Shown one piece after another: positions 32,901 through 62,534 of a stretch of DNA of 64,000 nt. Position numbers and translations under genes: made by a program. The notes below the pieces were generated by a model. That model was not told the origin of the DNA and searched no databases. It worked only from the letters and a program-made list of their open reading frames with translations. Positions within the stretch are counted from its first letter, which is position 1. Each line of letters starts with the position of its first letter. The stretch is from an uncultured delta proteobacterium. Lineage in GTDB: Bacteria > Myxococcota_A > UBA9160 > SMWR01. The DNA lies in assembly GCA_963832165.1 (NCBI GenBank), contig CAWHTE010000002.1, positions 64,001 to 128,000 on the forward strand. The letters are read 5' to 3'.

Positions 32901-32944
32901 CGTGGCCGAATTCACACCGGCCCAGGTGTGAAGTACTTCACACC
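32901..32944. promoter_or_regulatory. CRP/FNR-family box plus a weaker second site between the divergent asnB genes
   Basis: GGTGTGAAGTACTTCACACC perfect 20-bp palindrome at 32925-32944 (TGTGA-N6-TCACA); CGTGG-N6-TCACA at 32901-32916. Confidence 0.75.
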
Positions 32945-33013
32945 CGCCCCGCGGAATCGGGCAGGATGCTCCCGATCGGGCTGGGGCCCGCCCCTTCCCG
33001 GACGGAGGCGACC

Positions 33014-34948
33014 ATGTGTGGTTTCGTAGCCGGGCTGCTGCGCGACGCCCTCGAGCCGAAGCGGCTCGACCGCGCGCTCGAGACGCTCCATCACCGCGGC
33101 CCCGATTCCGTCGGTCGCTGGATCTCGCCCGACCGACGCTGGTTCCTCGGCCACACGCGCCTCTCGATCATCGGCCTGACGAACGGCGACCAGCCGATCG
33201 CGAACGAGGCTGGCGACGTGCAGATCGTCGTCAACGGCGAGTTCTACGGCTACCGCGCGATCCGCGAGCGTCTGCGCGCCGAAGGCAGCAAGTTCAAGAC
33301 CGAATCCGACAGCGAGATTGCGCTGCACCTCTACCTGCGCGAGGGCATGAACCTCGGGCGCCACCTGCGCGGCGAATTTGCAGCCGTGATCGCCGACCGG
33401 CGCAACGGCGCGATGCTCGCGATCCGCGACCGCTTCGGCATCAAGCCGCTGTTCTACACCGTGCACGAAGGGAACGTGTACTTCGCGTCCGAAGTGAAGG
33501 CGCTGCTCGCGCTCGGCGTTCCCGCGCGCTGGAACCGCGAGGCCGTGTTCCAGGAGTGCTTTCACTTCCGCCCGCACTCGCGCTCGATCTTCGACGGCAT
33601 CTACACCGTTCCGCCCGGTCACTACGCGATCGCGCAGCGCGGCGAGGTGAGCGTCTACCCGTACTGGGACCTTGAGTTTCCGACCGCGGCCGAGATCGCG
33701 GCCGACGACCGCACCGACGCCGAGGTGGTCGCGGGTTTCCGCGCCGTGCTCGACGATGCGGTGCGCGAGCGGTTGATCGCCGACGTCGAGGTCGCGAGCT
33801 ATCTCTCCGGCGGGATCGACTCGTGCGCGGTGCTCGGCCTCGCCCAGCGCCACATGGATCGCCCGATCCGCGCATTCACGCTCTGCTTCGAAGACGCGGC
33901 CTACGACGAGTCGGAGCTCGCGCGCGCACAGGCCGCGCTCACGGGCTCGAGCTTCCACCCGGTACCCGTGCCTCCGCGTGCGCTCGCGGAGTCCTACAAC
34001 GACGCTGTCTGGCACGCGGAGACGCCGTTCGTGAACGGTCACGGTGTGGCGAAGTTCCTGCTCTCGCGCGCAGTGCGCGACGCGGGGATCAAGGTGGTGT
34101 TCACGGGCGAAGGGTCGGACGAGATGCTCGCGGGCTATGCGCCGTTCCGGCGCGACGTCCTGCTCTACAACAGCGCCAGCCAGGACCCCGAGATCGTCCA
34201 GAAGCTGCTCGCCGAGATGCGCGCGTCGAGCTCGAACCGCGCCGTACCGATGCTCGTGCCGACCGAGGACGCGCCGATCCCACAGCTCGACACCGTCGCG
34301 CGCCGGCTCGGCTGGATTCCGTCGTGGATCAAGACGTTCGGAGCGAACGGCGCGCGCACGACGGAGTTCTTCAGCGCGGGGATGGCCGAGAGCGTGGCGG
34401 GGATCAATCCCTACGAGCTCGCGCTCTCGCGCCTGCCGGTCGAGGAGCGCCTCGCGGGGCGCGATCCGCTGAACCAGGCGCTCTATCTCTGGTCGCGGAT
34501 CCATCTCCCGAACTTCATCCTGACGTTCCTCTCCGATCGCATGGAGATGGCGCACTCGATCGAGGGGCGCGTTCCGTTCCTCGACCATCTCGTGGCCGAG
34601 TACGCGGCCGGCATCCCGATCCACATGAAGATCAACGGCATGCGCGAGAAACACGTGCTGCGCGAAGCGACGCGCGACGTGCTGATCGAGCCGGTCTACA
34701 ACCGCGAGAAGCACCCCTTCACGACGCCGCCCGCGAAGGTCGGCGAGAAGGACGCGATGCACGAGCTGATGGGTGACGTGTTCAGCTCGGGGCTGCTCGA
34801 CGAGCAGCCGATCTTCGACGCGGCCGCCGTGCGCAAGCTGTTCGACACGCTTCCCGAGAAGACCCCCGAAGAGCGGGTCGCGCTCGATGGCTTCTGGAAC
34901 CGCGTGCTCAGCTTCACGCTGATCCACCAGCGATTCGGCATGGGGTAG
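33014..34948 (+). CDS. asnB: Asparagine synthase (glutamine-hydrolysing)-family amidotransferase, copy 2 (644 aa)
   Basis: GGAGG RBS, MCGF Ntn Cys, HRGPD, YLSGGIDS, TGEGSDE, RVPFLD. Confidence 0.9.
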   Translation: MCGFVAGLLRDALEPKRLDRALETLHHRGPDSVGRWISPDRRWFLGHTRLSIIGLTNGDQPIANEAGDVQIVVNGEFYGYRAIRERLRAEGSKFKTESDSEIALHLYLREGMNLGRHLRGEFAAVIADRRNGAMLAIRDRFGIKPLFYTVHEGNVYFASEVKALLALGVPARWNREAVFQECFHFRPHSRSIFDGIYTVPPGHYAIAQRGEVSVYPYWDLEFPTAAEIAADDRTDAEVVAGFRAVLDDAVRERLIADVEVASYLSGGIDSCAVLGLAQRHMDRPIRAFTLCFEDAAYDESELARAQAALTGSSFHPVPVPPRALAESYNDAVWHAETPFVNGHGVAKFLLSRAVRDAGIKVVFTGEGSDEMLAGYAPFRRDVLLYNSASQDPEIVQKLLAEMRASSSNRAVPMLVPTEDAPIPQLDTVARRLGWIPSWIKTFGANGARTTEFFSAGMAESVAGINPYELALSRLPVEERLAGRDPLNQALYLWSRIHLPNFILTFLSDRMEMAHSIEGRVPFLDHLVAEYAAGIPIHMKINGMREKHVLREATRDVLIEPVYNREKHPFTTPPAKVGEKDAMHELMGDVFSSGLLDEQPIFDAAAVRKLFDTLPEKTPEERVALDGFWNRVLSFTLIHQRFGMG

Positions 34949-34979
34949 GGCGGGAGGAGCCGAAGGCGGATCCCGCCTT
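34945..34979 (+). repeat. REP copy whose GTAG contains the asnB2 stop codon
   Basis: Exact 35-bp copy; TAG 34946-34948 is the stop. Confidence 0.9.
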
Positions 34980-34985
34980 CCGCGA

Positions 34986-35786
34986 CTAATGCAACGGGCG
35001 CCGCCCGCGCGCCGCGAAGCGGATCCACGACACCCACTGGAACGACGGATCCGCGAGCGCGCGCGCGAACGTCTCGAGATCCTTCTCGTTGAGCCAGTCG
35101 CCCTTCAGGAGCGGCTCGCGCACCCGCTCGACCGACTGCTGCAGAAAGGTCGAGATCGGGCCGCCGCCGTGGTGTACCAGCGTCACGCCCTCGTTGCCGA
35201 TCTCGACGAGTCCGAGGCGCTCGAACAGTCCGGGCAGCCGCGGGGCGACGCACAGATCCATGATCGCGTCCGCGCGCATCGCGTCGACGAACGCGCGCAC
35301 GGTCCAATCGAACACCGCGCTCGACTTGTGGTCGGGCGTGGCGGAGCGCAGCGGAGTGAAGTCGCAGGCCTCGACGAAGAGCTGGCCGCCCGGGCGCAGC
35401 GCCGCAGCCATGCGCTCGAGCGCGCGGCGCGGGTCGGACAGATGCTCGAGCAGCGCGCGGCAGTGGACGAGGTCGTAGTGATCGGGCTCGAGCGGGTCGC
35501 GCATCACGTCCTGCTGGCGCACCTCGACGTTCTTGGGCAGCTCGAGCGCCTCGAGAAAGCGCGTGTCGATGTCGATCGCGGTGACGGAGCCCTCGACGCC
35601 CACGCGCTCCGCGAGCCAGCGCACCACCGATCCGCCGCCGCCCGCCACTTCCAGACAATGCCAACCGGGTGCCACCCCGATCTTCTCGAGCCGCTCGAAC
35701 GTGATCGGATCGGAGCTGGCCTCGAGCAGTCCGAGGCGTGTGCGCTCCGATGCGAACTCAGCTCCAGCGGCGAAGTAGCGGGTCAT
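34986..35786 (-). CDS. Class I SAM-dependent methyltransferase (266 aa)
   Basis: CLEVAGGGGS, AIDID, YDLVHCR, LRPGG motifs; GGAGG RBS. Confidence 0.88.
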   Translation of the reverse strand: MTRYFAAGAEFASERTRLGLLEASSDPITFERLEKIGVAPGWHCLEVAGGGGSVVRWLAERVGVEGSVTAIDIDTRFLEALELPKNVEVRQQDVMRDPLEPDHYDLVHCRALLEHLSDPRRALERMAAALRPGGQLFVEACDFTPLRSATPDHKSSAVFDWTVRAFVDAMRADAIMDLCVAPRLPGLFERLGLVEIGNEGVTLVHHGGGPISTFLQQSVERVREPLLKGDWLNEKDLETFARALADPSFQWVSWIRFAARGRRPLH

Positions 35787-35850
35787 CGTAACCTCCGTTG
35801 GCGGACGCGTGGCTTCTCGACAGCCAGCATCGCCCCGGGTTACCGGGCCC

Positions 35851-35872
35851 AGGTGTGAACTACTTCACACCT
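35851..35872. promoter_or_regulatory. CRP/FNR-family box upstream of the methyltransferase
   Basis: AGGTGTGAACTACTTCACACCT (TGTGA-N6-TCACA at 35854-35869). Confidence 0.75.
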
Positions 35873-35918
35873 CCCTTCGAAAACCGAACTATTTCCGCGC
35901 CCCTCGGGGCCCTCCTCT

Positions 35919-35952
35919 GTAGGGCGGGAGGAGCCGAAGGCGGATCCCGCCT
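35919..35952 (+). repeat. REP copy, intergenic
   Basis: GTAGGGCGGGAGGAGCCGAAGGCGGATCCCGCCT. Confidence 0.9.
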
Positions 35953-35971
35953 GCCGCGGCCGAAAGACCCG

Positions 35972-36229
35972 CTAGCGCGAAGCTGAAGGTGTGCCGCGCA
36001 GCAGTCCGGCCACATTCAGATCCTCGTCGACATCCGGCCAGTGAATCCCGATACCGTCGCCCAGAATCTCGAAGCGGCGGCGCTCTTCTGGAGTGGCACG
36101 GAGCAGGCGAGGGAACCACGCGAGAGGGGTGGCGATTCGGCGCCCATCGGCAAGGACGACGATGAGTTCGTCCTCGGTGACGGTCACCTCCTTTGCGCGC
36201 GGATCAGTGCTAGGCAGAGAAGAACTCAT
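35972..36229 (-). CDS. DUF2442-family protein (putative TA partner)
   Basis: LADGR...PLAWFPRL...GIHWPDVDEDL signature; 85 aa; overlaps the upstream gene. Confidence 0.8.
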   Translation of the reverse strand: MSSSLPSTDPRAKEVTVTEDELIVVLADGRRIATPLAWFPRLLRATPEERRRFEILGDGIGIHWPDVDEDLNVAGLLRGTPSASR

Positions 36230-36446: not shown

Positions 36447-36472
36447 GCGGCGACCGTACCGATCGCCGCCCC

Positions 36473-36507
36473 GTAGGGCGGGAGGAGCCGAAGGCGGATC
36501 CCGCCTT
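36473..36507 (+). repeat. REP copy, intergenic
   Basis: Exact 35-bp copy. Confidence 0.9.
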
Positions 36508-37422: not shown

Positions 37423-40400
37423 TCATTCGCGCTCGGCGCACAGCTCCGCAAAACGCGCGAGCGCCTCGTCGGCGGCGTCGACGGGGTAGAGCTCGTAGCG
37501 GCGGATGCGATCGCCTTCGAAGAGCTGAAAACCGATGAGGTAGTTCTCGAACGGCCCGCCGTCGGGGATGGTTCCGAATGCGCGGGAAAGAAACACCGCT
37601 CCGTGCTCGTTTCGCGTGAAGAACCGGAGCATCTCCACGCCGAGATCGGGCGCCATCTCGGCCCACGCGCGCACCGACTCCACGTACTCGTCGCGGTTCA
37701 CGACGCCGAGCGAGAGCGGGCGGTGATCGTGAATGACGGCATCGGGTAGGTAGGAGCTGCGCAGCGCCTCCCAGTCGTGCTCGTTGAAGGCGACGACACC
37801 GAGCGATCGCGCTCGAACCGGTCTTTCAGGCACGAAGCGCGACCACATCTCCGCAAACGCGGCGTGGCGGTCGTCGAGGTCGAACGTGATGATGGCGACC
37901 ACGTGGCCTTCGGAGTCGACCTCGACAACGTGCAGGTTTTCGATTTCGAACGCCCCGGCATCCCAGGTCCAGAGCATCTTCTCGAGCGTGAGCCGATCCC
38001 CCGCCGTCGCGAGGCGTGTGCGCGAGAGCGCAACGTCCGTTGCTGCCATCAACTTGCTGTTCTCGATGAACATCTCGCAATCGCCAGTAGTGAGAAACTG
38101 GCGGCGCCGATCTTCGAAGACCATCGGCGCGCACAACGCCCGTAGATCGTCCCAGGCGCGTGCCCGGTAGTACTCCCAAATGCGATCTACCGCACGCGTC
38201 GCCGCGTTGGGCGGAATCCGCAGCGGATCGGGGCGCAGCTCTTCGAACCGCGCGCGCGCGACGTCGAGGTCTTCGAGCTCGAAGTTCTCTTCCCGCACGA
38301 TGCGGCCGCCCCGGTAATGCCCGAGCGCGACGAAGATCGACTCGTACTCCCCGCCCTCGGCCAGCGTTCCGAAGCGGCGGCCGATCCCGAGGAACCCGTG
38401 TTCCTCGCGAGCGATCGTGTACAGCCCGCCGAAGATCGTGTCGGGCGATTGCTCGAATAGCGCGGCGAGCGATGCGATGTACTCGTCCTTCTCGATCCGC
38501 CCGAGGCCGGTCCGGCGGTGATCGTCGAACACATATTCGTCGGGCAGCGCAGCGCGGCACGCTGCGAGGTCGCGGTCGAGCCGAGCGCGGTACATCGCCA
38601 CGACTCCAGCAGGCAGCGATTCGAGGCGCGCTTCGCGTTCGAAGAGCTCGCGAGTCGCGGCGCGGCGGTCGTCGGGGTCGAAGACGACCAGCGCATCCAT
38701 GCGGCCCTCCGAATCGGCTTCGACGACCGAAAGCACTTCGGCTTCGACGCCCGGTACATCCGTGCCGTCGGTTCTGATCTGGAAGGTCTGGTGGATCAGT
38801 GCCAGACGATCTCCCGCCGTCGCGAGGACCGTGTTGAAGCGCCGGATCGCGGGTCCCGCGAAGCGCAGGCTCGCGACGAACATGTCGCGGTCGCCCTTCA
38901 GGAGCGCTGCGCGGCGGCGGTCGTCGAACTCGAGCGTCGGCGCGCACAGAGCCGCTACGGCGTCCCAGTCTCCGGCGAGGTGTGCTTCCTCCAGGCGAGG
39001 GCCGAGCCGGGTCGCCGCGTTGGGCGGAATCCGCAGCGGATCGGGCTGCAGCTCTGCGAACCGCGCGCGCGCATCGTCGAGCTGATCGAGGGCGTAGACG
39101 TCGCGGCGATGTTCCTGCCCTTCGGCGTCGACCTCGAACACGGCCACGCGCAGCTGCTCGAACGCGCCGCCCTCGTGCGTGCCGAACACGAGGCCGATCC
39201 TGAGCAAACCGCGCTCGCAGAGCCATACGTGTAGCGGACGGATACGCGTGTCGGCGGACAGCGCGTTCAGCGCCTTCATCGATTCGATGTAGGTCGCACG
39301 GTCGAGCGTGCCCCAGCCGAGCGGGCTGTGATCGTGGACGACGAAGTCCGGGGCGAGATACGCCCCCATGTCCGACTCCGGTGCTCCGCGAGCCTGCCCG
39401 AACATCTGCATCCAGCGCACGGGGGCCGGGAATGCGGCGGCCTCGCCCGCGAGGAAGCGTCGCCCCAGCTCGGCGTACGCGTCGTCGAGCTTGTCGGGGT
39501 CGAAGCGGACGAGCGCGATGCGGTTGCCGTGCTCGTCGACTTCCGCCACCGAGAGGGACTCGGTCTCGCTGGGCCCGATCGAGCCGTCGCTCCCTTCGAA
39601 GCGCATCCGGGTCAGCACCAGCCGGTCGCCGCGCGTGGCGAGCACCTCCTGGAAGACCCGAGATTCCTCCATCTCGAGCAGCGGATGAATGAACTGGTGG
39701 AACGTCTCGCGATCGAGCTCGAGCTGCATCAGCGCGCGCCGGTCGCTGTATCGGAGCTCGGGTGCATTGAGCGCGCAGATCGCCTGCCAGTCGCGAGCGG
39801 CCCACGCGCGACCGAATCGATCGACGGTCCGCGTGGCCGTGGTTTCGATCAGTCGTGCCGACGCGCGCGGCGCCGCGAGCTCCGCGAACCGCGCGCGCGC
39901 CGCGTCGAGCTGGTGGTCGAGGTCGTAGCAGTCGACGCTGGCGATGCGGCCGCGTTCGATTCCATAGATGAAGATGTGCGGGATCTCGAACGCTCCCTCG
40001 GCCTCGCTGCCGATCCACGTCGAGACCGCGAGCGCCACGCCCTCCGCGACGTCGATGTGGCTCACGCGAAGCGTCGCGTCGGGTCGCAGGTCCCACATCG
40101 AGCGGATCCGCGCGATGTAGTCATGCGCGGAGTCCATCGTCTCCCATCCCGAGAGCGGGCGGTGGTCGCGCGCGACGAGGTGCTCGGAGAAGACGGTCGT
40201 GAGCGCGTCCCAGGCGCGATCCCGGATCGCGCGCGCCAACCGCGACACCACGGCCTGGGTCTCGGGGTGTTCCGCCGCTTCGCCGGCCGCATAGCGCGCG
40301 TCGAGCTCGGCGTAGGCGGCGTCGAGAGCGGCGAGGTCGAAGCGAACCATCGCGGTCCGTTCGCCGCGCGCGTCTACCTCGACCACCGCGAGCGACTCGA

Positions 40401-43400
40401 TCTCGCTCGTGCCGATCGCTCCGTCGGCGCCCTCGAAGCGAACCCATGCCAGCGAGAGCCGATTGCCTCGCGTCGCAAGCGGCTCCCCCGAGAGTCGAGA
40501 CGAGCTCATCTCGAACAGCGGCCGCGTGAACTCGATCCACTGCTCGTGATCGAGCTCGAGCTGCACGAGCGCCCGGCGGTCGAAATAACGAGAGCCGGGC
40601 CGATGACCCGCTACGACAGCCTCCCAGTCGCGTGCGTTCCAGGCGCGTGCCAGACGGTCTTCGGCGCGCGTGGCCGCATTCTCGAACAGCCGTGGCGGCG
40701 CCGCGAGCTCCGCGAACCGCGCGCGCGCCGCGTCGATCTGCTCGGGGTCGTAAGCGTCCTCGCGCACGATGCGCCCGTCCGGTCCCGCCTCGTGCACGAG
40801 CACGTAGGGGATCTCGAAAGCGCCTTCGGATTCGCGGCCGAGCCAGCTCGTGACGATCAGGGCCGCCCGGTCGGCGAGCGCCATGTGACTGCGCCGCGTG
40901 AAGGCGTCGGGTCGCATCTCCACCAGTGCGCGCACACCCGCCACGTACTTCTCGAGCGAGCGGGCGCGACCCGTTCCCAGAAGTTGATGGTCGTGGCGCA
41001 CGAAATCAGGCGAGAAGAACGAGGCGAACTGATCCCAGTCCCGGCTCGCGATCGCGCGCCCCATGCCCGACGAACGGGCCCACATTGCGGGGTGTTCAGC
41101 GGCTTCGCCCTCTGCATAGCGGCGATCGAGCTCCGCGTACGCGGCGTCGAGCGCGTCGGCGTCGAAGCGGACGAGCGCGATGCGATCGCCGCGCTCGTCG
41201 ACTTCGGCCACGGTCAGAGACTCGGTCTCGCTGGGCCCGAGCGCGCCGTCGCTGCCCTCCCAGCGTAGCCGCGTCAGTGCGAGCCGATCGCCCCGCGTGG
41301 CCAGCCACTCTTGAGAGAGTCGAGACACCTGCATGTCGAACAGCGGGCGGATGAACGCGAGGTACTCGTCGCGATCGAGGTCGAGTCGCATGAGCGATCG
41401 GCGGTCTTCGTACCGGAGCCCGGGCGCGTGGCAGGCCACGACCGCCTCCCAGTCGCGGGCCACCCACGCGCGAAGGAAGCGATTCTGCGTCGCGGTGTTC
41501 TCGAAGAGGCACGCCGGCGCGCGCGGCGCCGCCAGCTCCGCGAACCGCGCGCGCGCCGCGTCGATCTGCTCGGGGTCGTAGGCGTCCCAGCGCCGGATGC
41601 GGCCGTCCGCTCCTATCTCGAGCACGACCACGGCGGGGAGCTCGAACGCGCCCTCGGATTCGCTGCCGACCCAGCGCACTGCAATGAGCACACCGCGGTC
41701 GGTGAGCGCGATGTGCTCGTAGCGCAGAGCCGCATCGGGCCGCAGCTCGCTCATCGCGCGGACGGAAGCGACAGCATTGATCGCCGAGCTCGAGCCCAGT
41801 CCGAGGATGCGATGGTCCTCGACGACTGCATCGGGCGAGAAGAACGCGCGATACCGTTCCCAATCGCGCGCCGCGAACGCGGCTCCGAGACCTGACGAGA
41901 CCGCCCACTCCGCCGGATGCTCGGCGGCCTCGCCCGCGGCATAGCGCGCATCGAGCTCGGCGTAGGCGGCGTCGAGCTGATCGGGATCGAAGCGGACCAA
42001 CGCGATGCGGTCACCGCGGTCGTCGACCTCCGCGACCCCTAGAGACTCGGTCTCGCTGGGGCCGATCGAGCCATCGCTGCCTTCGAAGCGCATCCGGGTC
42101 AGTACCAGCCGATCGCCGCGGGTGGCGAGCACTTCCTGCGAGATCCGAGAAACTTCCATCTCGAACAGCGGCCGCGTGAACTCGATCCACTGCTCGTGAT
42201 CGAGCTCGAGCTGCATCAGGGCGCGCCGGTCGCTATAGCGGAGCCCGGGCGCATTGTGCCCGGCGACCGCCTGCCAGTCGCGAGCGGCCCACGCGCGATC
42301 GAATCGATCGACCGCCCGCGTGGCCGCGGTCTCGAACAGCCGCGCTGGCGCCGGCGGCGCGCTCAACGCATCGAAGCGCGCGAGCGCCTCGACTTCGCGG
42401 TCGTCGTCGAAGACCTCGAAGCGCGACATCAATCCGTCGCCGTTGGCGGCCACGAGCGTGAGGAATCCCCGCTCGAAGGGGCCCCCGCTCTCGCGTCCGA
42501 TTCCGGAGAACCGACCCCGAGTCAGGAAGGCGTCGGGACGGAGGCCGAGAACGTCGTCGATGCCGAGCGCCAGCTCGTCGGCGAGCGGGGACCACGAGCG
42601 GAGGTTCTCCATCACGGCGTCCGCTCCGCGCGCGGAAGACGTTCCCAGGATCCGGTGATCGATGAACTGGATGTCCGGTGCGAGCGTTGCGGGGTAGGTC
42701 TCGGGGTCGTACGTACCGAACGCGCGGATTCGCGCCGCGAGCGCGGCGGCGCGAGCGCGCTCGGGACCTTCGGGCGCAAGCTCCGCATAGCGCTCGTACA
42801 GGCGCGCGATCGCATCGCCGAGCCGGTCGGCGGCGAAGACCTCGACGCGCCGCGCCCGCCCGCCCGATTCCGCTTCGATGACCTGTAGCATCTCCGATTC
42901 GTAGGGGCCGACGTCGAATCGCCTGCCGACGAACCCGCTCCCCCGGACGGAGCGCCGGCTCAGCGCGAGCGAATCGCCGAGCGTGGCCAGCGGCTCCAGG
43001 TGGAACACCGGACCCTCTGCGGAGAGGAGGTGTTGGCTCGACGCGATCAGTCCCTGCAAGCCGAACGTCGCTCCCGTCGTATGATCGACCGTCTCCCACG
43101 TCTCGGTGACCGAGGCGATGATCGCGTCGAGGTCGCGCGCGGCGTAGGCCGAGGTCATGCGCGCCGCGTGGTCGGTCGCGGCGTTGGGCCGTATGCGGCG
43201 CGCGGGGCGCGTACGCTCGGCGGTCAGCGCGTCGAAGCGCGCGAGCGCGTCGGCTTCGCGGTCGGCGTCGAATATCTCGAAGACACGTCTCCGGCCTTCG
43301 GCGTCGTAGACTTGCAGGAGAAGGAACGCGATCTCGTAGTCACCGCTGCTGGCCCGGTCGCGCCCGCGTTCGCGCGCGCGCACGAGCACTGCGTTGCTGC

Positions 43401-50809: not shown

Positions 50810-50853
50810 ATTCTAATGGGTACGCCAGTTCCTGGGGTGTGAAGGGGTTCACA
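50810..50853 (-). promoter_or_regulatory. CRP-type box plus TAGAAT -10 element for giant 2
   Basis: TGTGAAGGGGTTCACA at 50838-50853; TAGAAT at 50815-50810; 22-nt gap. Confidence 0.75.
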
Positions 50854-53900: not shown

Positions 53901-56900
53901 GAGCGGGCGCGACGGTGTCGGTGCCTCTGTGAGCTCCTCGAAGCGCGCTAGCGCCTCGTCGCGGCGGTCGACGTCGAGCCACTCGACGAAGGTCGCGAGA
54001 CCGTGGGCGCCGAACACCCGCAGCGACAGGTATTGGGCCTCGTAGGCGCCCCCACTCGCGCGGTCCGTTCCGCTCTCGTGCCATTCGATCAGGAGCCTCT
54101 CGGGCCGCACCGCGACGACATCAACGACGTCGAAGGTCAGGTCCGCGACGGTATCGAACCAGATGCCGATTCCGCGGTGTACCGCGTCTGCGCCGCGCGT
54201 CGTTCCGAGCGACACCACGCTGCGCCGGTCGCGGAAGATGACGTCGCGAGCGAAGATCGTGGCGAAGCGTTCGGCGTCCGCAGGTCCGTGCCACACCGCG
54301 AGCGTGCGCGCGGTAGCCGCTGCGCGCGTGCGCTCGGGGCCTTCGGGCAGCAGCTCGACATGGCGCTCGTACAGCCGCACGAGCGCGTCGCCGAGCCGGT
54401 CGGACGCGAAGATCTCGCAGTGCGTCAACCGACCCGCGGCGTCGACGTCGAAGATGGTGATGTTCTCGAGCTCGTAGGGTCCGACGTCGACGGTCTCCCC
54501 CGTGAATCCGCTCGCAGCGGCGCTCGTGCGACACAGCGCGAGCGAGTCGCCGAGCGTGGCGATCGGCTCGGTGCGGTGGACCGGATCGCGCGCGCGCAGG
54601 AGCGAGCGCCAGCTGTCCAGCATGCCCTGCCGGCCGAACTCCGTGCCGGTCGAGCGATCGACGAACTCGCAGGGATCGGCGAGGGTTTCGTCGAGCCCCT
54701 GGAGGTCGCGCGCCGCGATCGCGGTATCGAGCCGCGCCGCGTAGGCGCTCGCGGTGTTCGGCCGCACGCTGCGTCTCGGCGGCGTCGGCTCGGCAACCAG
54801 CGCGTCGAAACGCGCGAGCGCGTCGTCCGCGTGCTCGGCGTCGAACTGCTCGACGCGAGACACGAGGCCCGCGGCATCGAAGATCCAGATGAAGATGAAC
54901 CTGCGCTCGAACGTGCTCCCGCTCGCGCGCAGGGTGCCCCTGCTCGTGGATCGACACAGAAGGGCGTTGGACCGCACATCGATCACGTCGTCCATCCGGA
55001 AGACGACGCCGTCAGCGATCTCAGCGAGCTTTCGCGCCCAGTCGAGAAATGCCGCGGCACCCCGGATCGAGCCGATTCCGACCAGGCTCCGGTGGTCGAC
55101 CCACTCGACATCCGGCGCGAAGAGCGCTGCGCTTCGCGCGAGATCCATCGGCCCCGTGATGACCGTGATCGCGCGCGCAATCGCCAGGCATCTCGCGCGT
55201 CCGGGGCCGGGCGGCTCCAGCTCGGCGTAGCGCGCGTACAGGCGTGCGATCGCGTCGCCGAGGCGATCTTCCGAGAAACTCTCCGCTCGCGAGCGGCGGC
55301 CCTCGCGGTCGGCCTCGATCAGCACGAGGTGGTGGTTCTCGTAGGCGCCGACGTCGAAGCCCCCGCTCTCGAGAGCGCTCGCGGACGCGGACACGTGCAG
55401 GAGTGCGAGCGAGCCGCCGAGCGTGGCCACCGGCTCGTGTGCAGTCTTCGGATCGCGCGCCTTCATGTGGATCTGGAACGAGGTGAGCGCGCCCTGGCGA
55501 TCGTACGTGATGCCGGTCGGGTGATGGATATGGAGCGTATCGTCCGTGAACACCTGCTCGGCCGCAGACAGGTCGCGTGCTGCCATGGCAGCGTCGTAGC
55601 GCGCGCCGTTGGCAGTAGCGGCGTTGGGCCGCACGCGCCGCGCCCGGCGGCGCGGCGCGGCGGTGAGCTCGTCGAAGCGCGCGAGCGCCTCCTGCTCCTG
55701 GGTCAACTCGAAGAGCTCGAGGCGCGTCTGCAAGCCGTCGCTGCCGAAGACCATCAGGGAGATGGAGGGCGATTCGAAGCGACCGCCTCCGTCGCGCGCG
55801 GTCCCGGCAAACATCGTGCGCACGAGCAGCGCACTCGGACCCAGCCCGAGGATTTCATCGATGTGGTTCTCGATGTCGTCGGCGACCGCGAACCAGGAGC
55901 GGAACATCTCCAGCACGGCCTCGGGGCCGCGCGCGAAGAAGCTGCCGAGCTTGCGGCGGTCCACCATCTCGATCGCGGGCGAGTAGGCCGCCGTATAGCG
56001 CTCGAGGTCGTAGCCGCCCACCACGACCGCCCCAACCGAGCGCGCGGTCGAGGCAGCGCGCGCGCGCTCGGGGCCTTCGGGCAGGATCTCGGCATAGCGT
56101 TCGTATAGGCGCGTGACGGCGGCGCCGAGGCGGTCCGGCGCGAATCGCTCGGCGTAGCGCTGAAGGCCTTCCGCGTTGCTCTCGCTCAGCGTGAACATCT
56201 CGTTTGCGAAATCGCCGACATCGATCTGGGAGCTCTTGACTCCGCTCGCGGAGGTCGCGATCCGAGCCAGTGCGAGCGAGTCGCCCAGCGTTGCGAGCGG
56301 CTCGACCCGGTAGGACAGGTCGCGGCCCGCGAGCACGGCGTGCAGGCTGGCGAGGATCTCGCGCCGGCCGTAGGTGATGCCGACCTCGTGATCGAGCACC
56401 TCCGTGTCGTCGCTGTAGAGCGCAGCGATCTCCTCTTCGTCTCGTGCGGCGACTGCGCGCTCCACGCGGGCCAGGTGCGTGGTCGCCCCATTGGGTCGCA
56501 CGCGGCGCGCAGGGCGGGCCGACGGCGAGGTCGACGCGTCGAAGGCCGCGAGCGCCGCGTCGATCTGATCCGGCTCGAACATCTCGAAGCGCGCGAGCCG
56601 CCCGTCGGGGCCCGCGACCGAGAGCGAGAGGTAGGGGCGCTCATAGGCGCCGCCGCTCGCGCGCAGGGTGCCGAAATTGGTCTGGCGGACCAGGCACGCA
56701 TCCGGTCGCAGCGCGAGGATGTCGTCGAAGCGGTTCGCGGCGTCCGGGGCGAGCTCGAGCAGCGATCGAACCGCGTTCAGGAAGAGCTCCGGTCCGCGCC
56801 CTTGTCCGGCCCCGACGGTGCGGTGATCGAAGCTCTCGATGTCCGGCGCCAGGCTCGCGGCATACCGCTCGGTATCGACCCGCCCCACGTTGTTCGCCAC

Positions 56901-59900
56901 CGCGCGTGCGAACGCCGCCGCGCGCGTGCGCTCGGCGCCTTCGGGAAGCAGCTCCGCGTAGCGCTCGTACAGGCGCACGATCGCGTTGCCGAGCCGGTCC
57001 GCGCGGAAGCGCTCGGCGCGCAGCTGATGGCCGTCCGAGGAGACCATGTTCAGCGTGATCTCCTCGCTCGAGTAGCTCGCGACGTCGACCTCGCCACCGG
57101 CCACGCCACTCGCGGACACCGAAAGGCGCGTGAGCGCGAGCGAGTCGCCCAGCGACGCGAGTGGCTCGACGCGGTAGGACAGGTCGCGCGAGGCGAGCAA
57201 CGCACGGATCGCGGAGATCGTGTCGCGCTTGACGAAGGTGGTACCCGCGAGATGATCGACGACCTCCGTGTCGTCGGGGAAGAGCTCGGCGCACGCTGCG
57301 ATGTCTCGCGCGGCGACCGCGCTCTCGAGGCGGGCTTGCTGGACCGTAGCCGTGTTCGGCCGCACGCGGCGCGCGGGGCGCGCCGGCTCGGAGGTCAGCG
57401 CGTCGAAGCGCGCGAGCGCGTCCGACTCGCGGTCGGGATCGAACTGCTCGGCGCGCGAGACGAGGCCATTGGCATCGAAGATCCAGATCGACACGAACGG
57501 CCGCTCGAAGGAGCCACCGCTCGCGCGATCGGTGCCCGACGACGTGGCGCGGAACAGCAGCGCGTCGGCGCGCAGGTCGATCACGTCTTCCAGGCGGATC
57601 GCCGCCTGGTCGGCGGCGTCCGTGAGCGTGCGGATCCACTCGAGAGCGGCGGCGGACCCCTTGATGGATCCCATGCCGATCAAACTCCGGTGATCGACCC
57701 ACTCGATGTCCGGCGCGAGGATCGGCGCGCGGAAGCGGTCGAGATCGACCGGCCCGGCCAGCGCCGTGATCGCGCGCGCGATCGCGGCGGCGCGATCGAT
57801 CGCAGCGGCCGTCCTCTGTTGTTCCGCATGGCGCTCGTAGAGCCGAACGATCGCGTCGCCAAATCGATCGGGGGAGAACATCTCGATGCGGCGGTACCGC
57901 CCGGCGGCATCGGCCTCGAGCAGGAGAATTCGCGCGCCGTCGTAGGCGCCCACATCGAAGCCGCCCCCGGCCACCGACGGCCCAGACACGGAACAGCGAC
58001 AGAGCGCGAGAGAGTCGCCGAGCGTTGCGAGCGGCTCCTGCCTCACGAGTCCTTCGGCACGCAGCAGGATGCGCATCGTGGCGAGCGATTCCGCGCGGCC
58101 GTGGGTCACTCCCGTGGCGTGGTCGATGATTTCGACGTCGTCGGCCTGCAGCGCAGCGTAGGCGTCGACGTCGTGCGCGGCATAGGCCGCGTCGACGCGC
58201 GCGGCGACCGCGGTGGCCGCGTTCGGCCGCACGCGGCGCGAGGGGCGCGCCGGCGGCCCGGCCGTCAGCACGTCGAAGCGCGCGAGCGCGTCGGCCTCGC
58301 GGTCCGAGTCGAACACCTCGAAGCGCGAGACCCGGCCATCGGCCCCAAACACCGCGAGGGAAACGACATCGCGCTCGAACGCGCCGCCGCCGTCGCGCGC
58401 GATTCCCGAGAACGCCCCCCGGAATACGTACGCGTCGGGGCCCAGGTCGAGGATCTCGTCCGTGCGGATCTGCAGCTCGTCGCCGAGCCCGGTCCAGGAG
58501 CGGAAGTTCGCTTCCACAGCGACCGATCCACGCGCGGAGGAAGTGCCGAGGATGCGATGGTCCGTGAACACGATGTCCGGGGCGAGGCCGGCGGCATAGC
58601 GCTCGGGATCGTAGGGACCGAAGTGGGGGAAGCGCGCGATCACCGCCGCCCGCGCGCGCTCGAGGCCTTCGGGCAGCGATTCCGCATAGCGCTCGTAGAG
58701 ACGCGCGACGGCGTCGCCGAGCCGGTCGGCAGCAAAGCTCTCGAAGCGCGATGCTCGCTGCCCTTCCGCGCCGGCTTCGACCACGACGATCGCGGGCATC
58801 TCGTACGGGCCCACGCTCGCGTGCTGCCACCGGTTGCCGCTCGCGGCGATCGATTGGCGACACAGCGCGAGCGACTCGCCGAGCGTGGCGAGCGGCTCGA
58901 GCCGGTACGAGAAGTCGTCGCTGCGCCAGAGGCGGCGAGTGCTTTCGAGGGTGGCCATGCCGCTGTCCCAGGAGAGGCCGGTCGGATGGTGGACCACCTC
59001 GAAACCCTCGATCGCCGCCAGCATGGCGTCTTCGTCGCGAGCTCGGACCGCGGCTTCGATGCGCGCGGCGGCGGCGGTGGCGGCGTTCTCGCGGACGCGG
59101 CGGCGCGCGGGGGGTGCCGGGGTCGGTCCGCGCAAGGCGGGATCCGCCTTCGGCTCCTCCCGCCCTACGTGGCCGTGAACACCGGCGTCCACCGCAACGT
59201 CATGAGTAGGGCGGGAGACCGGAGCGATCCCGCCATCCCGCGCGCCCTCGCGCGCGCGCTCGACGAGCAGCGTCGCGCCCTTCGTCTCCCAGAGCGAGGT
59301 CGCGCGTGCCTCCTCCGCCGCGGCTTCGCTGCGCCGGCCCGCCGCGCGCAGCGCCGCCGCGAGCGCGGTGCGCGCTTCGGCGTGCCAAAGCAGCGCGTCG
59401 GTTGCCGCCGCGGTCTCGACGGCCGCGCGCGCGAGCTCGACCGCCCTCTCCGGCTCGCCGCGGCGCGCGAGCGCCTCGGCGCGCACATCGCGCCAGGCGA
59501 TCGCGGAGTGCAGATCGTCGCCCGCGAGCGCCTCGCTCTCGTGAGAGATCGCCTCGGCTTCGGCGGCGCGATCCTGCGCGAGCAACGCGCGGCCAAGCTG
59601 AGCGGCGCATTGCGCCGCGTCGCTGCCGAGCCCGAGCTCGCGCATGCCGTCGTACGCGGCGCGCAGACAGCGTTCGGCCGCGACGGGGTCGCCTTCGATC
59701 AGCTCGATCTCGCCCGCGAACTGATCCGCCTGGAGCAGGCGGTGGGTGATCCCGAGCTCCTCGACCATGCGTCGCGACGAGGCGATCATGCGGCGCGCGG
59801 CCTCGCTGCGACCGCGCAGCGCCTCGAGCACGCCCTGACACCGCAGTGCGACGGCTTCCACGGCCGGTGAGCCCTGCGTGATGCGCAGAACGCGCACGAC

Positions 59901-62465
59901 GTCGAGGCAGCGACCGCTCGCACGTGTCACAGGCGAGGGACCCCAGAGCGCCGCGAGCGGTGCACCCGAGAGCACCGCATTCGCGCGGCGGCGATCGCCC
60001 GCGCGGCGCGCCGCCGCGAGCGCGCGGTCGAGCGCGGCTTCACACGCGCCGACCTTTCCGAGCCGCGCGAGCGCGATCGCGTGCACGAAGTGCGCCTTTG
60101 CCTCGCCGGCAGAATCGCCCGCGGCCGTGAGCTGCTCGGCTGCGGCGGACACCGCGTCGGCGCTCGTGCGCAGCGTCTTCGGATCGGTGAGCGCGGCGCG
60201 CTCACCAGCGAAGCACGTGTGCCACGCGCGCAGCCGATCCGACTCCGCGGTGAAGCGGCCCAGCTCCTCGATCGCACGCTCCGCCGTGGCGACCTCGCCC
60301 GCGGCGAGCAGCGCCTCGCACCAGTCGAGCGCGAGCTCGGCACGCGCGGAATCGTCCGGCTCGAGGCGTTCGAGCGCGCGGCCGAGCAGGCTCGCCGCCA
60401 CGGGCACGTCGTCGCGCGCGAGCGCGCGGCGCCCCGCGGACGCGAGGTATTTCGACGCGCGCTCGCCGAGCGCGCGGCCCTGCGCATCGATCGGCCCGAG
60501 CTCGGAGAGGTGCTGGTGCGCCTGCTCGAGATGCCAGCCGATCGTCTCGTCGTGCGGCGGCTCGTCGCCGACGCGGCCGACGACCCATTCGGCGAAGCGA
60601 GCGTGCAGCTCCGCGCGCGTGTTCTTGAGCAGGCGGCGGTAGGCGGCGTCGCGGATCAGCACATGGTGGAAGCGCAGCGCGGGTTCGCCGAGGAACCATC
60701 CCGTGTCCGATTCGATCAGCTCGGTGCGGCGCAGGGCTTCGAGCTGGCGGTCGAGATCGGCGATCTCGCGCGGGAGCAGCTCCTTCACCGCCGCGCGCGA
60801 GAACTGGCGCCCGACGACCGACGCGCGCTCGAGCACGGTGCGCTCCTCGGGCCGCAGCTTCTCGATGCGCGCCGCGAGCAACGCCTGGATCGTCGGCGGC
60901 ATGTCCAGCGCGGCGAGCTCCACGCCGACCGTCCAGTGGTCTTTCTCGCGCACGAGTGCGCCGTCGTGCACGAGCATGCGCACGAGCTCACCCACGAAGA
61001 GCGGGTTGCCCTCGCTCGCCGCGAGCACGCGGCCCGCGACGGCCGCGGGCAGTTCATCTGCGCCGATCGCGTTCGCGGCGAGCTTCATCGCGGCGAGCGC
61101 GTCGAGCCCGGAGAGCGTCACGACCTCGGAGACCAGGCCGCCCGGAGTCGCGAGCGAGGAGCGCGTTTCGCGCAGCTCGGGCCGCGCCGCGACGAGCACG
61201 AGCAGCGGCGCGTCCGCCGTCCACTGCACGAGGTGCTCGGTTAGATCGAAGAGCAGCGGCTCGGCCCACTGCAGGTCGTCGATCGCGAGCACGATCGGTC
61301 GCGTCTCCGCGAGCGCGCCGAGGAACCGGCGCACGACGAAGAAGGTCTCCTCGGGCGGGGCGGGCGTGCCCGCGATCAGCGCGGCGACGCCGCTCGCGAT
61401 CCGGCGGTGCTCGGAGTCCTCTCCGGGCATCGCCGCCGCGATCGCGCTGCGCAGCGCATCGCCCGCGATCGCGTCATCGAGCTGCAGCAGCTCGCGCAGC
61501 GCTGCGGCGAGGGGTGCGAACGTGCCGCCGCCGGCCTGATCGCAGCGCGCGGTCAGCACGGTGGCCTCGTCCTGGAGTCGCCTCGCCACCTCGGCCAGCA
61601 CGCGCGACTTGCCGAGCCCGGGCGAGCCCAGGATCACCGCGAGCCGCGCGCGATGCTCCGAGATCGCATCGTCGTACACCGCGCGCAGTCGCCGCAGCTC
61701 GCTCTCGCGGCCGACGAACGGCGTGGCCGACGCGCCCGCGGGCCGGTCGAGCGACACGACGCGGTAGGCGGCGACCGCCTCCCTGCGGCCCTTCAGCTCG
61801 AGTGCGCCGATCGGTGCGAGCGTGACGAGCTCGGACACGAGCCGGCGGGTCGACTCGCCGATCAGGACGTCGCCGTCCTGCGCCGCGTGCTGGAGGTGTG
61901 CCGCGACGTTGAGCGGGTCGCCGATCCCGGCCGCGTAGTCGTCGGAGACGACCACCTCACCCGTGTTCACGGCCACGCGCAGGCCGACGCGATCGGCGAG
62001 TTGATTCTCCGCGCGGAACTCGCGGAACGCCTCCTGCACCGCGACCCCCGCGCGCACGGCGCGGATAGCGTCGTCCTCGGCCACGTTCGGGATGCCGAAC
62101 GCGCACATCACTCCGTCGCCGAGCAATTGCACGACGGTGCCGCCGTGCGCCTCGATCGGCGCGCGCACGGCGCGGTGGTAGCGGTCCATCATGCGACTGA
62201 CGGCCTCGGCGTCGAGCCGCTCCTGCAACGCGGTCGAGCCGATCAGGTCCGCGAACACGATCGTGACGACTTTGCGCGCGGGGGGCTGCCCGGCACCGGC
62301 ATCCACTGGACGCGCGTCGAGCGTGGCGCCGCACGCCTCGCAGAATCGCGCATCCAGCGGGGCCTCAGCGCCGCATGCCGGGCAGCGTGGCGCGAGTGCG
62401 TTTCCGCAGCCCGCGCAGAATCGAGCAGCCGGGCGGTTCGCCCGGCCGCAGCTCGCGCAATCCAT
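50922..62465 (-). CDS. Giant protein 3 (3847 aa): Zn-ribbon - class III cyclase - STAND ATPase - TPR-like - ~9.5 tandem paired SnoaL/NTF2-like units
   Basis: Same motifs; uninterrupted ORF; GGAGG upstream. Confidence 0.88.
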   Translation of the reverse strand: MDCASCGRANRPAARFCAGCGNALAPRCPACGAEAPLDARFCEACGATLDARPVDAGAGQPPARKVVTIVFADLIGSTALQERLDAEAVSRMMDRYHRAVRAPIEAHGGTVVQLLGDGVMCAFGIPNVAEDDAIRAVRAGVAVQEAFREFRAENQLADRVGLRVAVNTGEVVVSDDYAAGIGDPLNVAAHLQHAAQDGDVLIGESTRRLVSELVTLAPIGALELKGRREAVAAYRVVSLDRPAGASATPFVGRESELRRLRAVYDDAISEHRARLAVILGSPGLGKSRVLAEVARRLQDEATVLTARCDQAGGGTFAPLAAALRELLQLDDAIAGDALRSAIAAAMPGEDSEHRRIASGVAALIAGTPAPPEETFFVVRRFLGALAETRPIVLAIDDLQWAEPLLFDLTEHLVQWTADAPLLVLVAARPELRETRSSLATPGGLVSEVVTLSGLDALAAMKLAANAIGADELPAAVAGRVLAASEGNPLFVGELVRMLVHDGALVREKDHWTVGVELAALDMPPTIQALLAARIEKLRPEERTVLERASVVGRQFSRAAVKELLPREIADLDRQLEALRRTELIESDTGWFLGEPALRFHHVLIRDAAYRRLLKNTRAELHARFAEWVVGRVGDEPPHDETIGWHLEQAHQHLSELGPIDAQGRALGERASKYLASAGRRALARDDVPVAASLLGRALERLEPDDSARAELALDWCEALLAAGEVATAERAIEELGRFTAESDRLRAWHTCFAGERAALTDPKTLRTSADAVSAAAEQLTAAGDSAGEAKAHFVHAIALARLGKVGACEAALDRALAAARRAGDRRRANAVLSGAPLAALWGPSPVTRASGRCLDVVRVLRITQGSPAVEAVALRCQGVLEALRGRSEAARRMIASSRRMVEELGITHRLLQADQFAGEIELIEGDPVAAERCLRAAYDGMRELGLGSDAAQCAAQLGRALLAQDRAAEAEAISHESEALAGDDLHSAIAWRDVRAEALARRGEPERAVELARAAVETAAATDALLWHAEARTALAAALRAAGRRSEAAAEEARATSLWETKGATLLVERAREGARDGGIAPVSRPTHDVAVDAGVHGHVGREEPKADPALRGPTPAPPARRRVRENAATAAAARIEAAVRARDEDAMLAAIEGFEVVHHPTGLSWDSGMATLESTRRLWRSDDFSYRLEPLATLGESLALCRQSIAASGNRWQHASVGPYEMPAIVVVEAGAEGQRASRFESFAADRLGDAVARLYERYAESLPEGLERARAAVIARFPHFGPYDPERYAAGLAPDIVFTDHRILGTSSARGSVAVEANFRSWTGLGDELQIRTDEILDLGPDAYVFRGAFSGIARDGGGAFERDVVSLAVFGADGRVSRFEVFDSDREADALARFDVLTAGPPARPSRRVRPNAATAVAARVDAAYAAHDVDAYAALQADDVEIIDHATGVTHGRAESLATMRILLRAEGLVRQEPLATLGDSLALCRCSVSGPSVAGGGFDVGAYDGARILLLEADAAGRYRRIEMFSPDRFGDAIVRLYERHAEQQRTAAAIDRAAAIARAITALAGPVDLDRFRAPILAPDIEWVDHRSLIGMGSIKGSAAALEWIRTLTDAADQAAIRLEDVIDLRADALLFRATSSGTDRASGGSFERPFVSIWIFDANGLVSRAEQFDPDRESDALARFDALTSEPARPARRVRPNTATVQQARLESAVAARDIAACAELFPDDTEVVDHLAGTTFVKRDTISAIRALLASRDLSYRVEPLASLGDSLALTRLSVSASGVAGGEVDVASYSSEEITLNMVSSDGHQLRAERFRADRLGNAIVRLYERYAELLPEGAERTRAAAFARAVANNVGRVDTERYAASLAPDIESFDHRTVGAGQGRGPELFLNAVRSLLELAPDAANRFDDILALRPDACLVRQTNFGTLRASGGAYERPYLSLSVAGPDGRLARFEMFEPDQIDAALAAFDASTSPSARPARRVRPNGATTHLARVERAVAARDEEEIAALYSDDTEVLDHEVGITYGRREILASLHAVLAGRDLSYRVEPLATLGDSLALARIATSASGVKSSQIDVGDFANEMFTLSESNAEGLQRYAERFAPDRLGAAVTRLYERYAEILPEGPERARAASTARSVGAVVVGGYDLERYTAAYSPAIEMVDRRKLGSFFARGPEAVLEMFRSWFAVADDIENHIDEILGLGPSALLVRTMFAGTARDGGGRFESPSISLMVFGSDGLQTRLELFELTQEQEALARFDELTAAPRRRARRVRPNAATANGARYDAAMAARDLSAAEQVFTDDTLHIHHPTGITYDRQGALTSFQIHMKARDPKTAHEPVATLGGSLALLHVSASASALESGGFDVGAYENHHLVLIEADREGRRSRAESFSEDRLGDAIARLYARYAELEPPGPGRARCLAIARAITVITGPMDLARSAALFAPDVEWVDHRSLVGIGSIRGAAAFLDWARKLAEIADGVVFRMDDVIDVRSNALLCRSTSRGTLRASGSTFERRFIFIWIFDAAGLVSRVEQFDAEHADDALARFDALVAEPTPPRRSVRPNTASAYAARLDTAIAARDLQGLDETLADPCEFVDRSTGTEFGRQGMLDSWRSLLRARDPVHRTEPIATLGDSLALCRTSAAASGFTGETVDVGPYELENITIFDVDAAGRLTHCEIFASDRLGDALVRLYERHVELLPEGPERTRAAATARTLAVWHGPADAERFATIFARDVIFRDRRSVVSLGTTRGADAVHRGIGIWFDTVADLTFDVVDVVAVRPERLLIEWHESGTDRASGGAYEAQYLSLRVFGAHGLATFVEWLDVDRRDEALARFEELTEAPTPSRPLPANAATAHTARVDEAIALRNTDALVELVAERAVILDHKTGTTFDREGWIASFRSLMKAREPQSLHEPLAILGDSLGLFRRTISATGFAGATLDVGSYLIDELDVLEADEQGRIAYAEVFAVDRLSDAIAKLYERYASEQPEGAERRRATAIARAIPVMLAPLDPDAIANLLALDVQYRDHRLLGWGSARGLVTVRRGVRDVAESITFTATPTDEILALRPDALLVHRTLEGEQRGVPFRSHPVALYVFDANGRLAQWENYDADERDAALARLDELVAPVAPPRLVENAATRSLDQFVQAWAARDWEAVRAVYAPEMRMSDRRSIVQLEFDLEEQLEFQRPLFEMKSSRVVAEIIATRGDRLALARMCTEVADGSIGPSEISSLAVWQVNPAGKAVAGARFDLDARDEAYAELDARYGAGEATEHPATWTALASLRGVLEAGEWGRIMALFSPDLFAEDHRLFGWGSANSPAEYVAAVRSLSDVAPDVTLRVDHVVLGDRAALFVASWIGSQAAGAFEIPVVTVFGFSRNGQVNRAHHYSLEQIAAARARFAEVEAPAVPARAVESAATRSIERFALAWSARDWKAVTALYAPGFRYIDQRSLMQLDIGLEHWFEFARPLFDMATSRISSEILATRGERLALSRMLVEVAGGSIGSASIGPSEIDSLIVCEVDAHGQRVANVRFDPNALDAAYAELDRRYAVGEAAEHPEMWAAISSMQSAISERNWGALPSRFSPDYIREDHRDEGSGTTHGSKLIVDSVRTLIKLRPDVSTRADHVELADRAALVVTHWVADELEDPFEVHSTNVFALGPDGTIGHDDIYDPEQLSAARARFAELATPRSPTAELDARYATGEAAAFPHIAGTMHAFLDAFALRDWDALAARMAPDLVVEDHRLLGWETVRSTADYVRTLHSLVDLAPDTQLRLDHAEMSQRGLIWIGAWVGTRDGGAFETPWITVSEHDARGIVLRFDQYDLEQLPAARARFEELRAKRE
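59134..59236. repeat. Inverted REP doublet in frame in giant protein 3 (TPR-to-repeat linker)
   Basis: Canonical 59134-59168 (-) plus variant 59206-59236 (+); translated GGIAPVSRPTHDVAVDAGVHGHVGREEPKADPAL. Confidence 0.9.
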
Positions 62466-62491
62466 CCGGGAGGCCCTCCGGTGGCGGAGCC

Positions 62492-62534
62492 ATTCTAATA
62501 GGTCTGGTCACCCCGGGGTGTGAACGGGTTCACA
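62492..62534 (-). promoter_or_regulatory. CRP-type box plus TAGAAT -10 element for giant 3
   Basis: TGTGAACGGGTTCACA at 62519-62534; TAGAAT at 62497-62492; 21-nt gap. Confidence 0.75.

Follow-up and report, generated by a model that had tools for sequence, protein, structure and literature searches.

In Rhodospirillum centenum, the CRP-family regulator CgrA is reported to bind TGTGAAGCAGTTCACA between divergent genes and to activate transcription in both directions as well as its own gene; the locus order is RC1_3784 / RC1_3785-gcyB-gcyC-cgrA, and cyclic GMP (cGMP) is ramped up in a feed-forward loop (PMC4681086). CgrA is described as preferring cGMP and as having Arg-Thr (RT) in place of Arg-Ser (RS) (PMC10187061). 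Boxes of the same subtype occur in the 64,000-nucleotide stretch of DNA analysed here (the window, G000:C2:64001-128000), which comes from an uncultured delta proteobacterium of the Myxococcota (source genome G000, 5.5 Mb, 89% complete, ~70% GC). A first-pass annotation had proposed that four such boxes are CRP-type activator sites through which giant cyclases would switch on their own genes. In our reading, the boxes are class II CRP-type sites at five promoters, probably bound by a CgrA-like protein of the same genome (CRP2) that would activate with a cyclic nucleotide, likeliest cGMP.

With the R. centenum loop, the locus shares the box subtype, a bidirectional site and the pairing with cyclase-AAA proteins that have Gln at the purine site. 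In a quick tree, CRP2 falls on the branch of Azospirillaceae CgrA-like proteins, and RT is frequent among its homologues. The locus differs in that CRP2 is unlinked to its targets and its operon has no box, and in that the predicted targets code for giant cyclase-STAND-NTF2-array proteins, AsnB enzymes and a methyltransferase. Moreover, the giants are not GcyA orthologues and the phylum is another. The comparison was made via Azospirillaceae stand-ins, which we assigned by gene order and box. The boxes were not classed as members of a CgrA-type regulon because CRP2 of the source genome has no RT motif and no YcaO/TfuA-cgrA operon was found there.

The class II promoters of Escherichia coli CRP (-41.5) have the TGTGA-N6-TCACA core, the -10 spacing, the Arg-Glu helix and the Glu/Arg/Ser pocket in common with the system described here. 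In contrast to them, our boxes have fixed AA..TT inner bases, an SYRS centre and G/C flanks, CRP2 has Lys for Arg185 and Ile for Thr127 and reaches only 77.8 bits with the E. coli-type CRP model (cut-off 266), and the targets are not catabolic. Clr of Sinorhizobium meliloti, like CRP2, is a CRP paralogue associated with class III cyclases of the CHASE2 type. Clr is reported to be without Glu181 and to read GTNNC-N4-GNNAC (PMC10127613), whereas CRP2 keeps Glu181 and the boxes keep the full TGTGA.

The pattern TGTGA-N6-TCACA has exactly four matches in the window (0.00 expected in 100 shuffles), and a window scan allowing one mismatch gave no additional site. All four are intergenic and lie where the first-pass annotation had placed them. 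Their common extended form, GGTGTGAA-N4-TTCACA on the + strand, holds for all four boxes; the flanking GG is not conserved in relatives. The boxes and their -10 hexamers are as follows.

32927..32942: box 1, TGTGAAGTACTTCACA, between the divergent asnB1 and asnB2, in class II position on both strands
32965..32970, + strand: -10 hexamer GATGCT for asnB2, spacer 22
32899..32904, - strand: -10 hexamer CACGCT for asnB1, spacer 22, absent from the first-pass annotation
35854..35869: box 2, TGTGAACTACTTCACA
35826..35831, - strand: -10 hexamer GATGCT for the methyltransferase, spacer 22
50838..50853: box 3, TGTGAAGGGGTTCACA
50810..50815, - strand: -10 hexamer TAGAAT for giant 2, spacer 22, predicted transcription start ~50803
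62519..62534: box 4, TGTGAACGGGTTCACA, in a promoter paralogous to that of box 3
62492..62497, - strand: -10 hexamer TAGAAT for giant 3, spacer 21, predicted transcription start ~62485

The hexamers and the spacing of 21-22 nt proposed earlier (GATGCT, GATGCT, TAGAAT and TAGAAT at spacers 22, 22, 22 and 21) were thus reproduced. Counting the hexamer start as -12, the centres of boxes 1 to 4 lie at -42.5, -42.5, -42.5 and -41.5. As box 1 is bidirectional, there are five promoters for the four boxes (asnB1, asnB2, methyltransferase, giant 2 and giant 3). A sigma-70 -35/-10 pair was not found in 30500-37600. Two ATGs proposed by the open reading frame (ORF) finder, 32966 and 50811, lie inside -10 hexamers, and the likely starts are therefore 33014 (Met-Cys-Gly) and the TTG at 50784. 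A stretch containing GTTCGAATG 5' of boxes 3 and 4 (50854-50890 and 62535-62560; promoter strand) is conserved in the promoters of giants 2 and 3, possibly as a second operator.

The four boxes are not independent but belong to two promoter pairs that arose by duplication, boxes 1/2 and boxes 3/4. An alignment shows the promoter DNA of giant 2 to be paralogous to that of giant 3; flanks, spacer and leader are common to the asnB2 and methyltransferase promoters. These pairs are what favours regarding the motif as a by-product of repeats or duplication without any regulatory role. Against this, sites with unrelated flanks occur throughout the order: a perfect box was found in 122 of 193 genomes, while a reversed control pattern was found in 4. 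The positional bias relative to the -10 element is also strict, and all 12 best matches of a position weight matrix scan of the source genome are intergenic (box 1 scores highest). We regard the motif as a mere repeat as hardly credible. The source genome has 13 perfect TGTGA-N6-TCACA sites; seven of them read TGTGAA-N4-TTCACA, and four of these seven are in the window. In relatives, the base 5' of TGTGA is C in 93 and G in 43 of 150 cases (75 sites, both strands counted). Four genomes of the order are rich in perfect boxes (G169, G142, G152 and G140 with 26, 16, 11 and 10); they may hold regulon-defining material, although their copies of the motif may instead belong to a repeat. The E. coli consensus TGTGAT-N4-ATCACA was rejected as the main motif of the order, as it occurs in only 5 of 41 genomes.

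The class II geometry was examined in relatives and metagenomes. Of 71 perfect sites in 40 relatives, 68 were fetched and 63 kept after removing five near-identical copies; one own-genome row and two duplicate rows were also removed. Among 62 gene-facing sides, 34 had the pattern xAxxxT at spacer 21/22 (3.6 expected), 26 of them at exactly 21. On the other sides, it was found in 13 of 64 cases (3.9 expected), an excess which is probably due to missed small genes. Metagenome contigs yielded 98 non-redundant sites (from 119 loci), of which 62 had xAxxxT at 21/22 on either side, with 18 expected; the class II site is therefore common in soil bacteria and not special to the order. Within the source genome, the figures were 7 of 8 for intergenic AA..TT sites versus 7 of 20 for other TGTGA sites (background 9.7%). 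Hence, the class II CRP-family geometry suggested by the first-pass annotation is backed by a positional test, and that the four boxes are activator sites of this class is well supported. The positional bias in relatives and the rarity of the reversed control pattern refute the repeat reading.

The same core is, however, also that of the operator of the repressor Rex, given as TTGTGAAW4TTCACAA (PMC2883068). This had been overlooked when the sites were first identified as the CRP consensus; their identity as CRP-family sites was retained after Rex had been tested. The 16-bp core being identical, the boxes could be operators of Rex or of another unrelated regulator overlapping the -35 region. 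A Rex DNA-binding domain above the cut-off was found in none of 41 genomes and in none of five further box-positive genomes without CRP2. The SYRS centre and the outer C/G bases of the boxes are unlike the A/T-rich W4 and the outer T/A of the Rex operator. Furthermore, the fixed 21/22 spacing and the missing sigma-70 pair fit an activator. Rex was rejected as the regulator on the grounds of the 46 genomes, the G/C-rich centre and flanks and the activator spacing, and an operator of Rex or of another unrelated regulator is very improbable.

Two full CRP genes were found in the source genome: CRP1 at G000:C3:225644-226306 and CRP2 at G000:C2:167934-168653, 40 kb past the window. Both are outside the window, where none of the 36 ORFs scanned is a crp gene, in agreement with the first-pass annotation. 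Both encode Arg180/Glu181-type recognition residues. The reader of the boxes is likely the CgrA-like CRP2 and not the housekeeping CRP1. Across 193 genomes of the order, with CRP2 presence called at E <= 1e-42, a perfect box was found in 111 of 140 genomes with CRP2 versus 11 of 53 without (Fisher 9e-14), and the number of perfect sites per genome was 2.5 versus 0.57; kin are not independent in these counts, and the metagenome-assembled genomes (MAGs) are incomplete. A within-genus permutation gave p=0.00035 (17 mixed genera, 103 genomes). Two CRP2-free genomes outside the 193 were searched as well, and neither has the box. Of 30 CRP2 genes, 5 have a box (at most one mismatch) in the 1.5 kb upstream, compared with 0 of 21 CRP1 genes.

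Several observations weigh against this assignment. The source genome's own CRP2 operon is one of the places where a box is missing, 29 CRP2-bearing genomes are without a perfect box and 11 CRP2-free genomes have one. In family f7, CRP2 was found in 11 of 17 genomes and the box in 1 of 17 (relaxed pattern: 3/5 vs 1/5); G041 has TGTGAG variants of the box. A divergent CRP2-like gene was found in 1 of 5 box-positive CRP2-free genomes searched (G166). Finally, CRP1 has a canonical SRETVTR helix and could bind the boxes.

It is worth weighing a scheme close to the original idea, in which CRP1 with cyclic AMP (cAMP) reads the boxes and CRP2 is incidental. The pocket and helix of CRP1 are canonical, its score with the E. 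coli-type model is better (126.8 bits, also under the cut-off), and the boxes in the 11 genomes without CRP2 would be explained. On the other hand, 42 of the 53 CRP2-free genomes have no perfect box, and a check of three of these 42 (G010, G032 and G035) found CRP1 in each. The boxes cluster at CRP2 genes and not at CRP1 genes, and a second site class could be the CRP1 set. We consider control by CRP1 quite improbable.

The second class of CRP-like sites is mostly TGTGAT/C with AT-richer flanks, and 7 of 20 are class II. It includes C1:424549, C3:574515, C7:214548, C7:349133 and C5:175602, and several of its sites adjoin genes that, judged from translations, are sugar-transferase- or secreted-protein-like. 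It is possibly the regulon of CRP1.

The nucleotide pocket of CRP2 is intact (Gly88-Glu89, Arg98-Ser99), and its recognition helix is of the CRP type (Arg198-Glu199...Lys203, RE..NK). Among 120 CRP2 homologues, the phosphate-binding Gly-Glu is kept in 119 and the Arg in all 120. The pocket Arg is followed by Thr in 70 of them and by Ser in the other 50; RT was found in 0 of 21 CRP1 proteins. The best plasmid tblastn matches of CRP2 were from Indioceanicola and Azospirillum (~38-40% identity). Three Azospirillaceae loci (L298, L300 and L301) contain a cyclase-AAA gene, a small divergent gene, a small ORF, YcaO, TfuA and a CRP. In each, a perfect TGTGAA-N4-TTCACA precedes the small ORF, at a distance of ~2.5 kb upstream from the CRP. 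These CRPs are inferred to be CgrA orthologues because gene order and box match the R. centenum locus. The Indioceanicola site (L300) equals the box 1 16-mer letter for letter, and the TGTGAAGCAGTTCACA 16-mer is also present in the relatives G011, G015, G021 and G034. In a quick tree of 63 proteins, built without CgrA itself, E. coli CRP and Clr, 30 CRP2 rows (support 93) join nine proteobacterial CRPs at a Shimodaira-Hasegawa-like approximate likelihood ratio (SH-aLRT) support of 99. CRP1 and three actinobacterial CRPs fall outside this branch.

In L298 (2881-9585), L300 and L301, the genes in the gcyB/gcyC position are YcaO and TfuA, a thioamide-forming pair, and follow a 65-aa ORF. This suggests a peptide-modification system rather than cyclase subunits in that position. 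No paper joining YcaO/TfuA with a CgrA-type operon was found in a literature search.

The CgrA likeness of CRP2 also has its limits, and the following points speak against a cGMP-responsive CgrA counterpart. CRP2 is not the specific sister of the CgrA-like trio, as it forms a polytomy with six other proteobacterial CRPs, and its nearest solved structures are actinobacterial CRP/GlxR-type proteins. The source genome's CRP2 has RS instead of the CgrA-type RT, as do 44 of its 51 closest homologues. YcaO and TfuA had no match in the source genome, which is 89% complete. The position of T127 is V/A/I/L in 119 of 120 CRP2 homologues (Ser128 in 120 of 120). Changes of T127 to I or L are reported to be frequent in cAMP-independent CRP* alleles (PMC2743635), and T127L is reported to raise DNA affinity without cAMP (PMC11445507).

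CRP2 might accordingly be a natural CRP*-like activator that needs little cyclic nucleotide, with the giants as non-catalytic sensors or scaffolds and no feedback switch at all. The hydrophobic residue at T127 would fit this, as would two features of the cyclases described below, the Arg-to-His change in giants 2 and 3 and the absence of cyclase genes behind the boxes in relatives. However, the phosphate-binding residues are kept almost without exception; the CgrA-like proteins of Azospirillum brasilense Sp7 and of B510 have Val-Ser at the T127-Ser128 position, and CgrA is cGMP-gated; and the GcyA-like cyclases are non-canonical too. As a whole, this alternative strikes us as unlikely. For the ligand of CRP2 taken on its own, cGMP comes close to an even call without reaching it, cAMP is a doubtful candidate and a need for little or no ligand is rather unlikely.

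The boxes, their spacing to the -10 hexamers, their co-occurrence with CRP2 and the intact pocket and helix of CRP2 are observed. Binding and activation by CRP2 are likely: loaded with a cyclic nucleotide, CRP2 would bind the boxes and activate asnB1, asnB2, the methyltransferase, giant 2 and giant 3. An order-wide CRP2 regulon would have been recruited onto giant cyclase-STAND-NTF2-array genes in the source genome. The genes around the boxes are listed below.

20690..30844, - strand: giant 1, 3384 aa; zinc ribbon, class III cyclase, STAND/AAA ATPase, TPR, SnoaL/NTF2 array
30962..32877, - strand: asnB1, the other AsnB-family gene, with a frameshift near 32228; 117 nt separate it from giant 1, which lies downstream
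33014..34948, + strand: asnB2, AsnB-family glutamine amidotransferase with N-terminal Cys; Pfam Asn_synthase and GATase_7
34986..35786, - strand: methyltransferase dependent on S-adenosylmethionine (SAM), 266 aa; Pfam Methyltransf_11/25
37423..50784, - strand: giant 2, 4453 aa from the TTG start; architecture of giant 1
50922..62465, - strand: giant 3, 3847 aa; architecture of giant 1, cyclase substitutions as in giant 2
62625..63512, + strand: YihY/BrkB-family membrane protein, divergent from box 4
G000:C7:623730-624171: truncated giant-1 paralogue, 101 aa; own box kept, class II -10 hexamer CATGCT at 21

The giants share the cyclase-AAA-TPR head of the TOMM kinase/cyclase fusion family TIGR03903 (218 bits, cut-off 706) and differ from these cyclase-STAND proteins by an additional 2300-3400 residues of SnoaL/NTF2-like domains. 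Close relatives of the giants are in MAGs labelled Myxococcota, Binatia or Deltaproteobacteria. A fourth giant of the source genome starts past a contig edge (C10).

All three giant cyclases keep the two metal-binding Asp. Giant 1 also keeps the Asn/Arg and has Gln/Glu at the purine sites. The purine pairs are reported as Lys/Asp for ATP and Glu/Cys-Gly for GTP (PMC4215837). The GcyA-like cyclases have Gln at the purine site as in the giants, and His/Lys for Asn/Arg; the odd residues of the giants need not mean inactivity, because the GcyA-like cyclases are themselves non-canonical. The giants were nevertheless rejected as GcyA orthologues: a FastTree of 114 cyclase-AAA heads groups them with Lys-type actinobacterial proteins. 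A single-sequence fold of the giant 1 cyclase domain had a predicted local distance difference test (pLDDT) score of 55 and was not used.

Closure of the loop would require that the CRP2 ligand is made by giant 1, by a giant heterodimer or by the CHASE2 cyclase C7:306968, which we consider possible but doubtful. The evidence against closure is considerable. In giants 2 and 3, the catalytic Arg is replaced by His and the purine sites are occupied by Gln/Ala; the Arg-to-His change recurs in just one other aligned homologue (L036). Neither the ATP nor the GTP purine pair is present in any of the three giants. Giant 1, the one giant keeping Asn/Arg, has no box of its own, and is possibly read from the asnB1 promoter. 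The FastTree requires 9 changes for Gln, so that the Gln of the giants is separate from that of the GcyA-like rows, which are long-branched. No class III cyclase was found among the 59 genes behind boxes in relatives, which were taken from 76 candidates and scanned over the first 500 aa. In 12 other genomes, a box lies within 1.5 kb of 1 of 15 giant genes. As a conserved module, the link between box and giant was rejected, since 1 of 36 close loci has a box within 160 nt and this is the same gene as in the 1 of 15; several of the 36 loci are without upstream DNA.

Some observations point the other way. Boxes lie directly upstream of two giants and of the remnant on C7, and CRP2 is present in each of the 13 other genomes of the order that have giants (base rate 139/192). 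In the independent genome G041, one giant is preceded by a box with GATGCT at 21, and another stands in the arrangement box-MFS-asnB1-...-giant. A CHASE2 cyclase-DUF928 operon (G000:C7:306968-309661) has a weaker box with AATCCT at 22. The recurrent targets among the 59 genes were DUF928 (5) and P450 (3); the former lie beside CHASE2 cyclase, TPS and ShlB-type genes and sometimes CRP2, which is a further likeness to Clr. A signal without any feedback could, on the contrary, come from further putative guanylyl cyclases of the source genome, which have Glu (C7:643229 and C1:711118) or Asp (C7:306968) at the Lys site. Across the order, CHASE2 class III cyclases beside DUF928 (L250, L253, L258, L260 and C7:306968) mostly have Asp at the purine Lys site, and these loci cluster with TPS/ShlB genes and sometimes with CRP2.

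The feedback idea of the first-pass annotation has a precedent and may run on cGMP, because CgrA binds the same box in the published loop. A complete self-amplifying cGMP switch, in which the giants (giant 1 alone or paired with giants 2/3) induce their own genes together with the amidotransferase and methyltransferase, appears unlikely on present evidence. In such a switch, the amidotransferase and methyltransferase enzymes may make or modify a molecule sensed by the NTF2-like arrays.

Between giants 1 and 2 lie the two AsnB genes, the methyltransferase and hicB. AsnB2 matches TIGR01536 with 412 bits (cut-off 267). The asnB1 sequence has 82.5% DNA identity to the intact L032 orthologue, with a one-base gap at the frameshift place; the frameshift is an assembly error or marks a pseudogene. 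Contigs of the run X1 cover the region in short pieces, and none among the matches listed spans the asnB1 frameshift. The YihY/BrkB gene is probably no class II target, because no -10 hexamer was found at spacers 15-26 on its side.

Upstream of hicB (36567-37004), a hicA-like gene (~36990-37260, - strand) is apparently split over two frames. This would be a second frameshift less than 5 kb from that of asnB1; the giant ORFs of 10-13 kb are intact. A 30-bp element resembling repetitive extragenic palindromes (REP) has 54 copies in the genome. It lies in frame inside giant 1 (22315-22344 and 27595-27624) and giant 3 (59141-59170), where it encodes VGREEPKADPA at domain junctions, and intergenic copies are at 20352, 34943, 35917, 36471 and 37347.

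A literature search (supplements aside) found nothing on this regulon in Myxococcota, nor on these giants or their architecture. The promoter logic is textbook and the feedback design has already been published for R. centenum (PMC4681086), so the surprise is limited. The boxes are a first handle on the expression timing of the giant cyclase-STAND-NTF2 proteins. To our knowledge, cGMP signalling through a CRP has been shown in only few alphaproteobacteria. The presence of a CgrA-like regulator, with its defined box and class II promoters, in 140 of the 193 genomes examined from a Myxococcota order offers a test case for whether a cGMP-CRP system reaches another phylum. In the most far-reaching reading, which is unlikely, uncultured Myxococcota would run cGMP signalling on a CgrA-like CRP, wired as a self-amplifying switch in this lineage.

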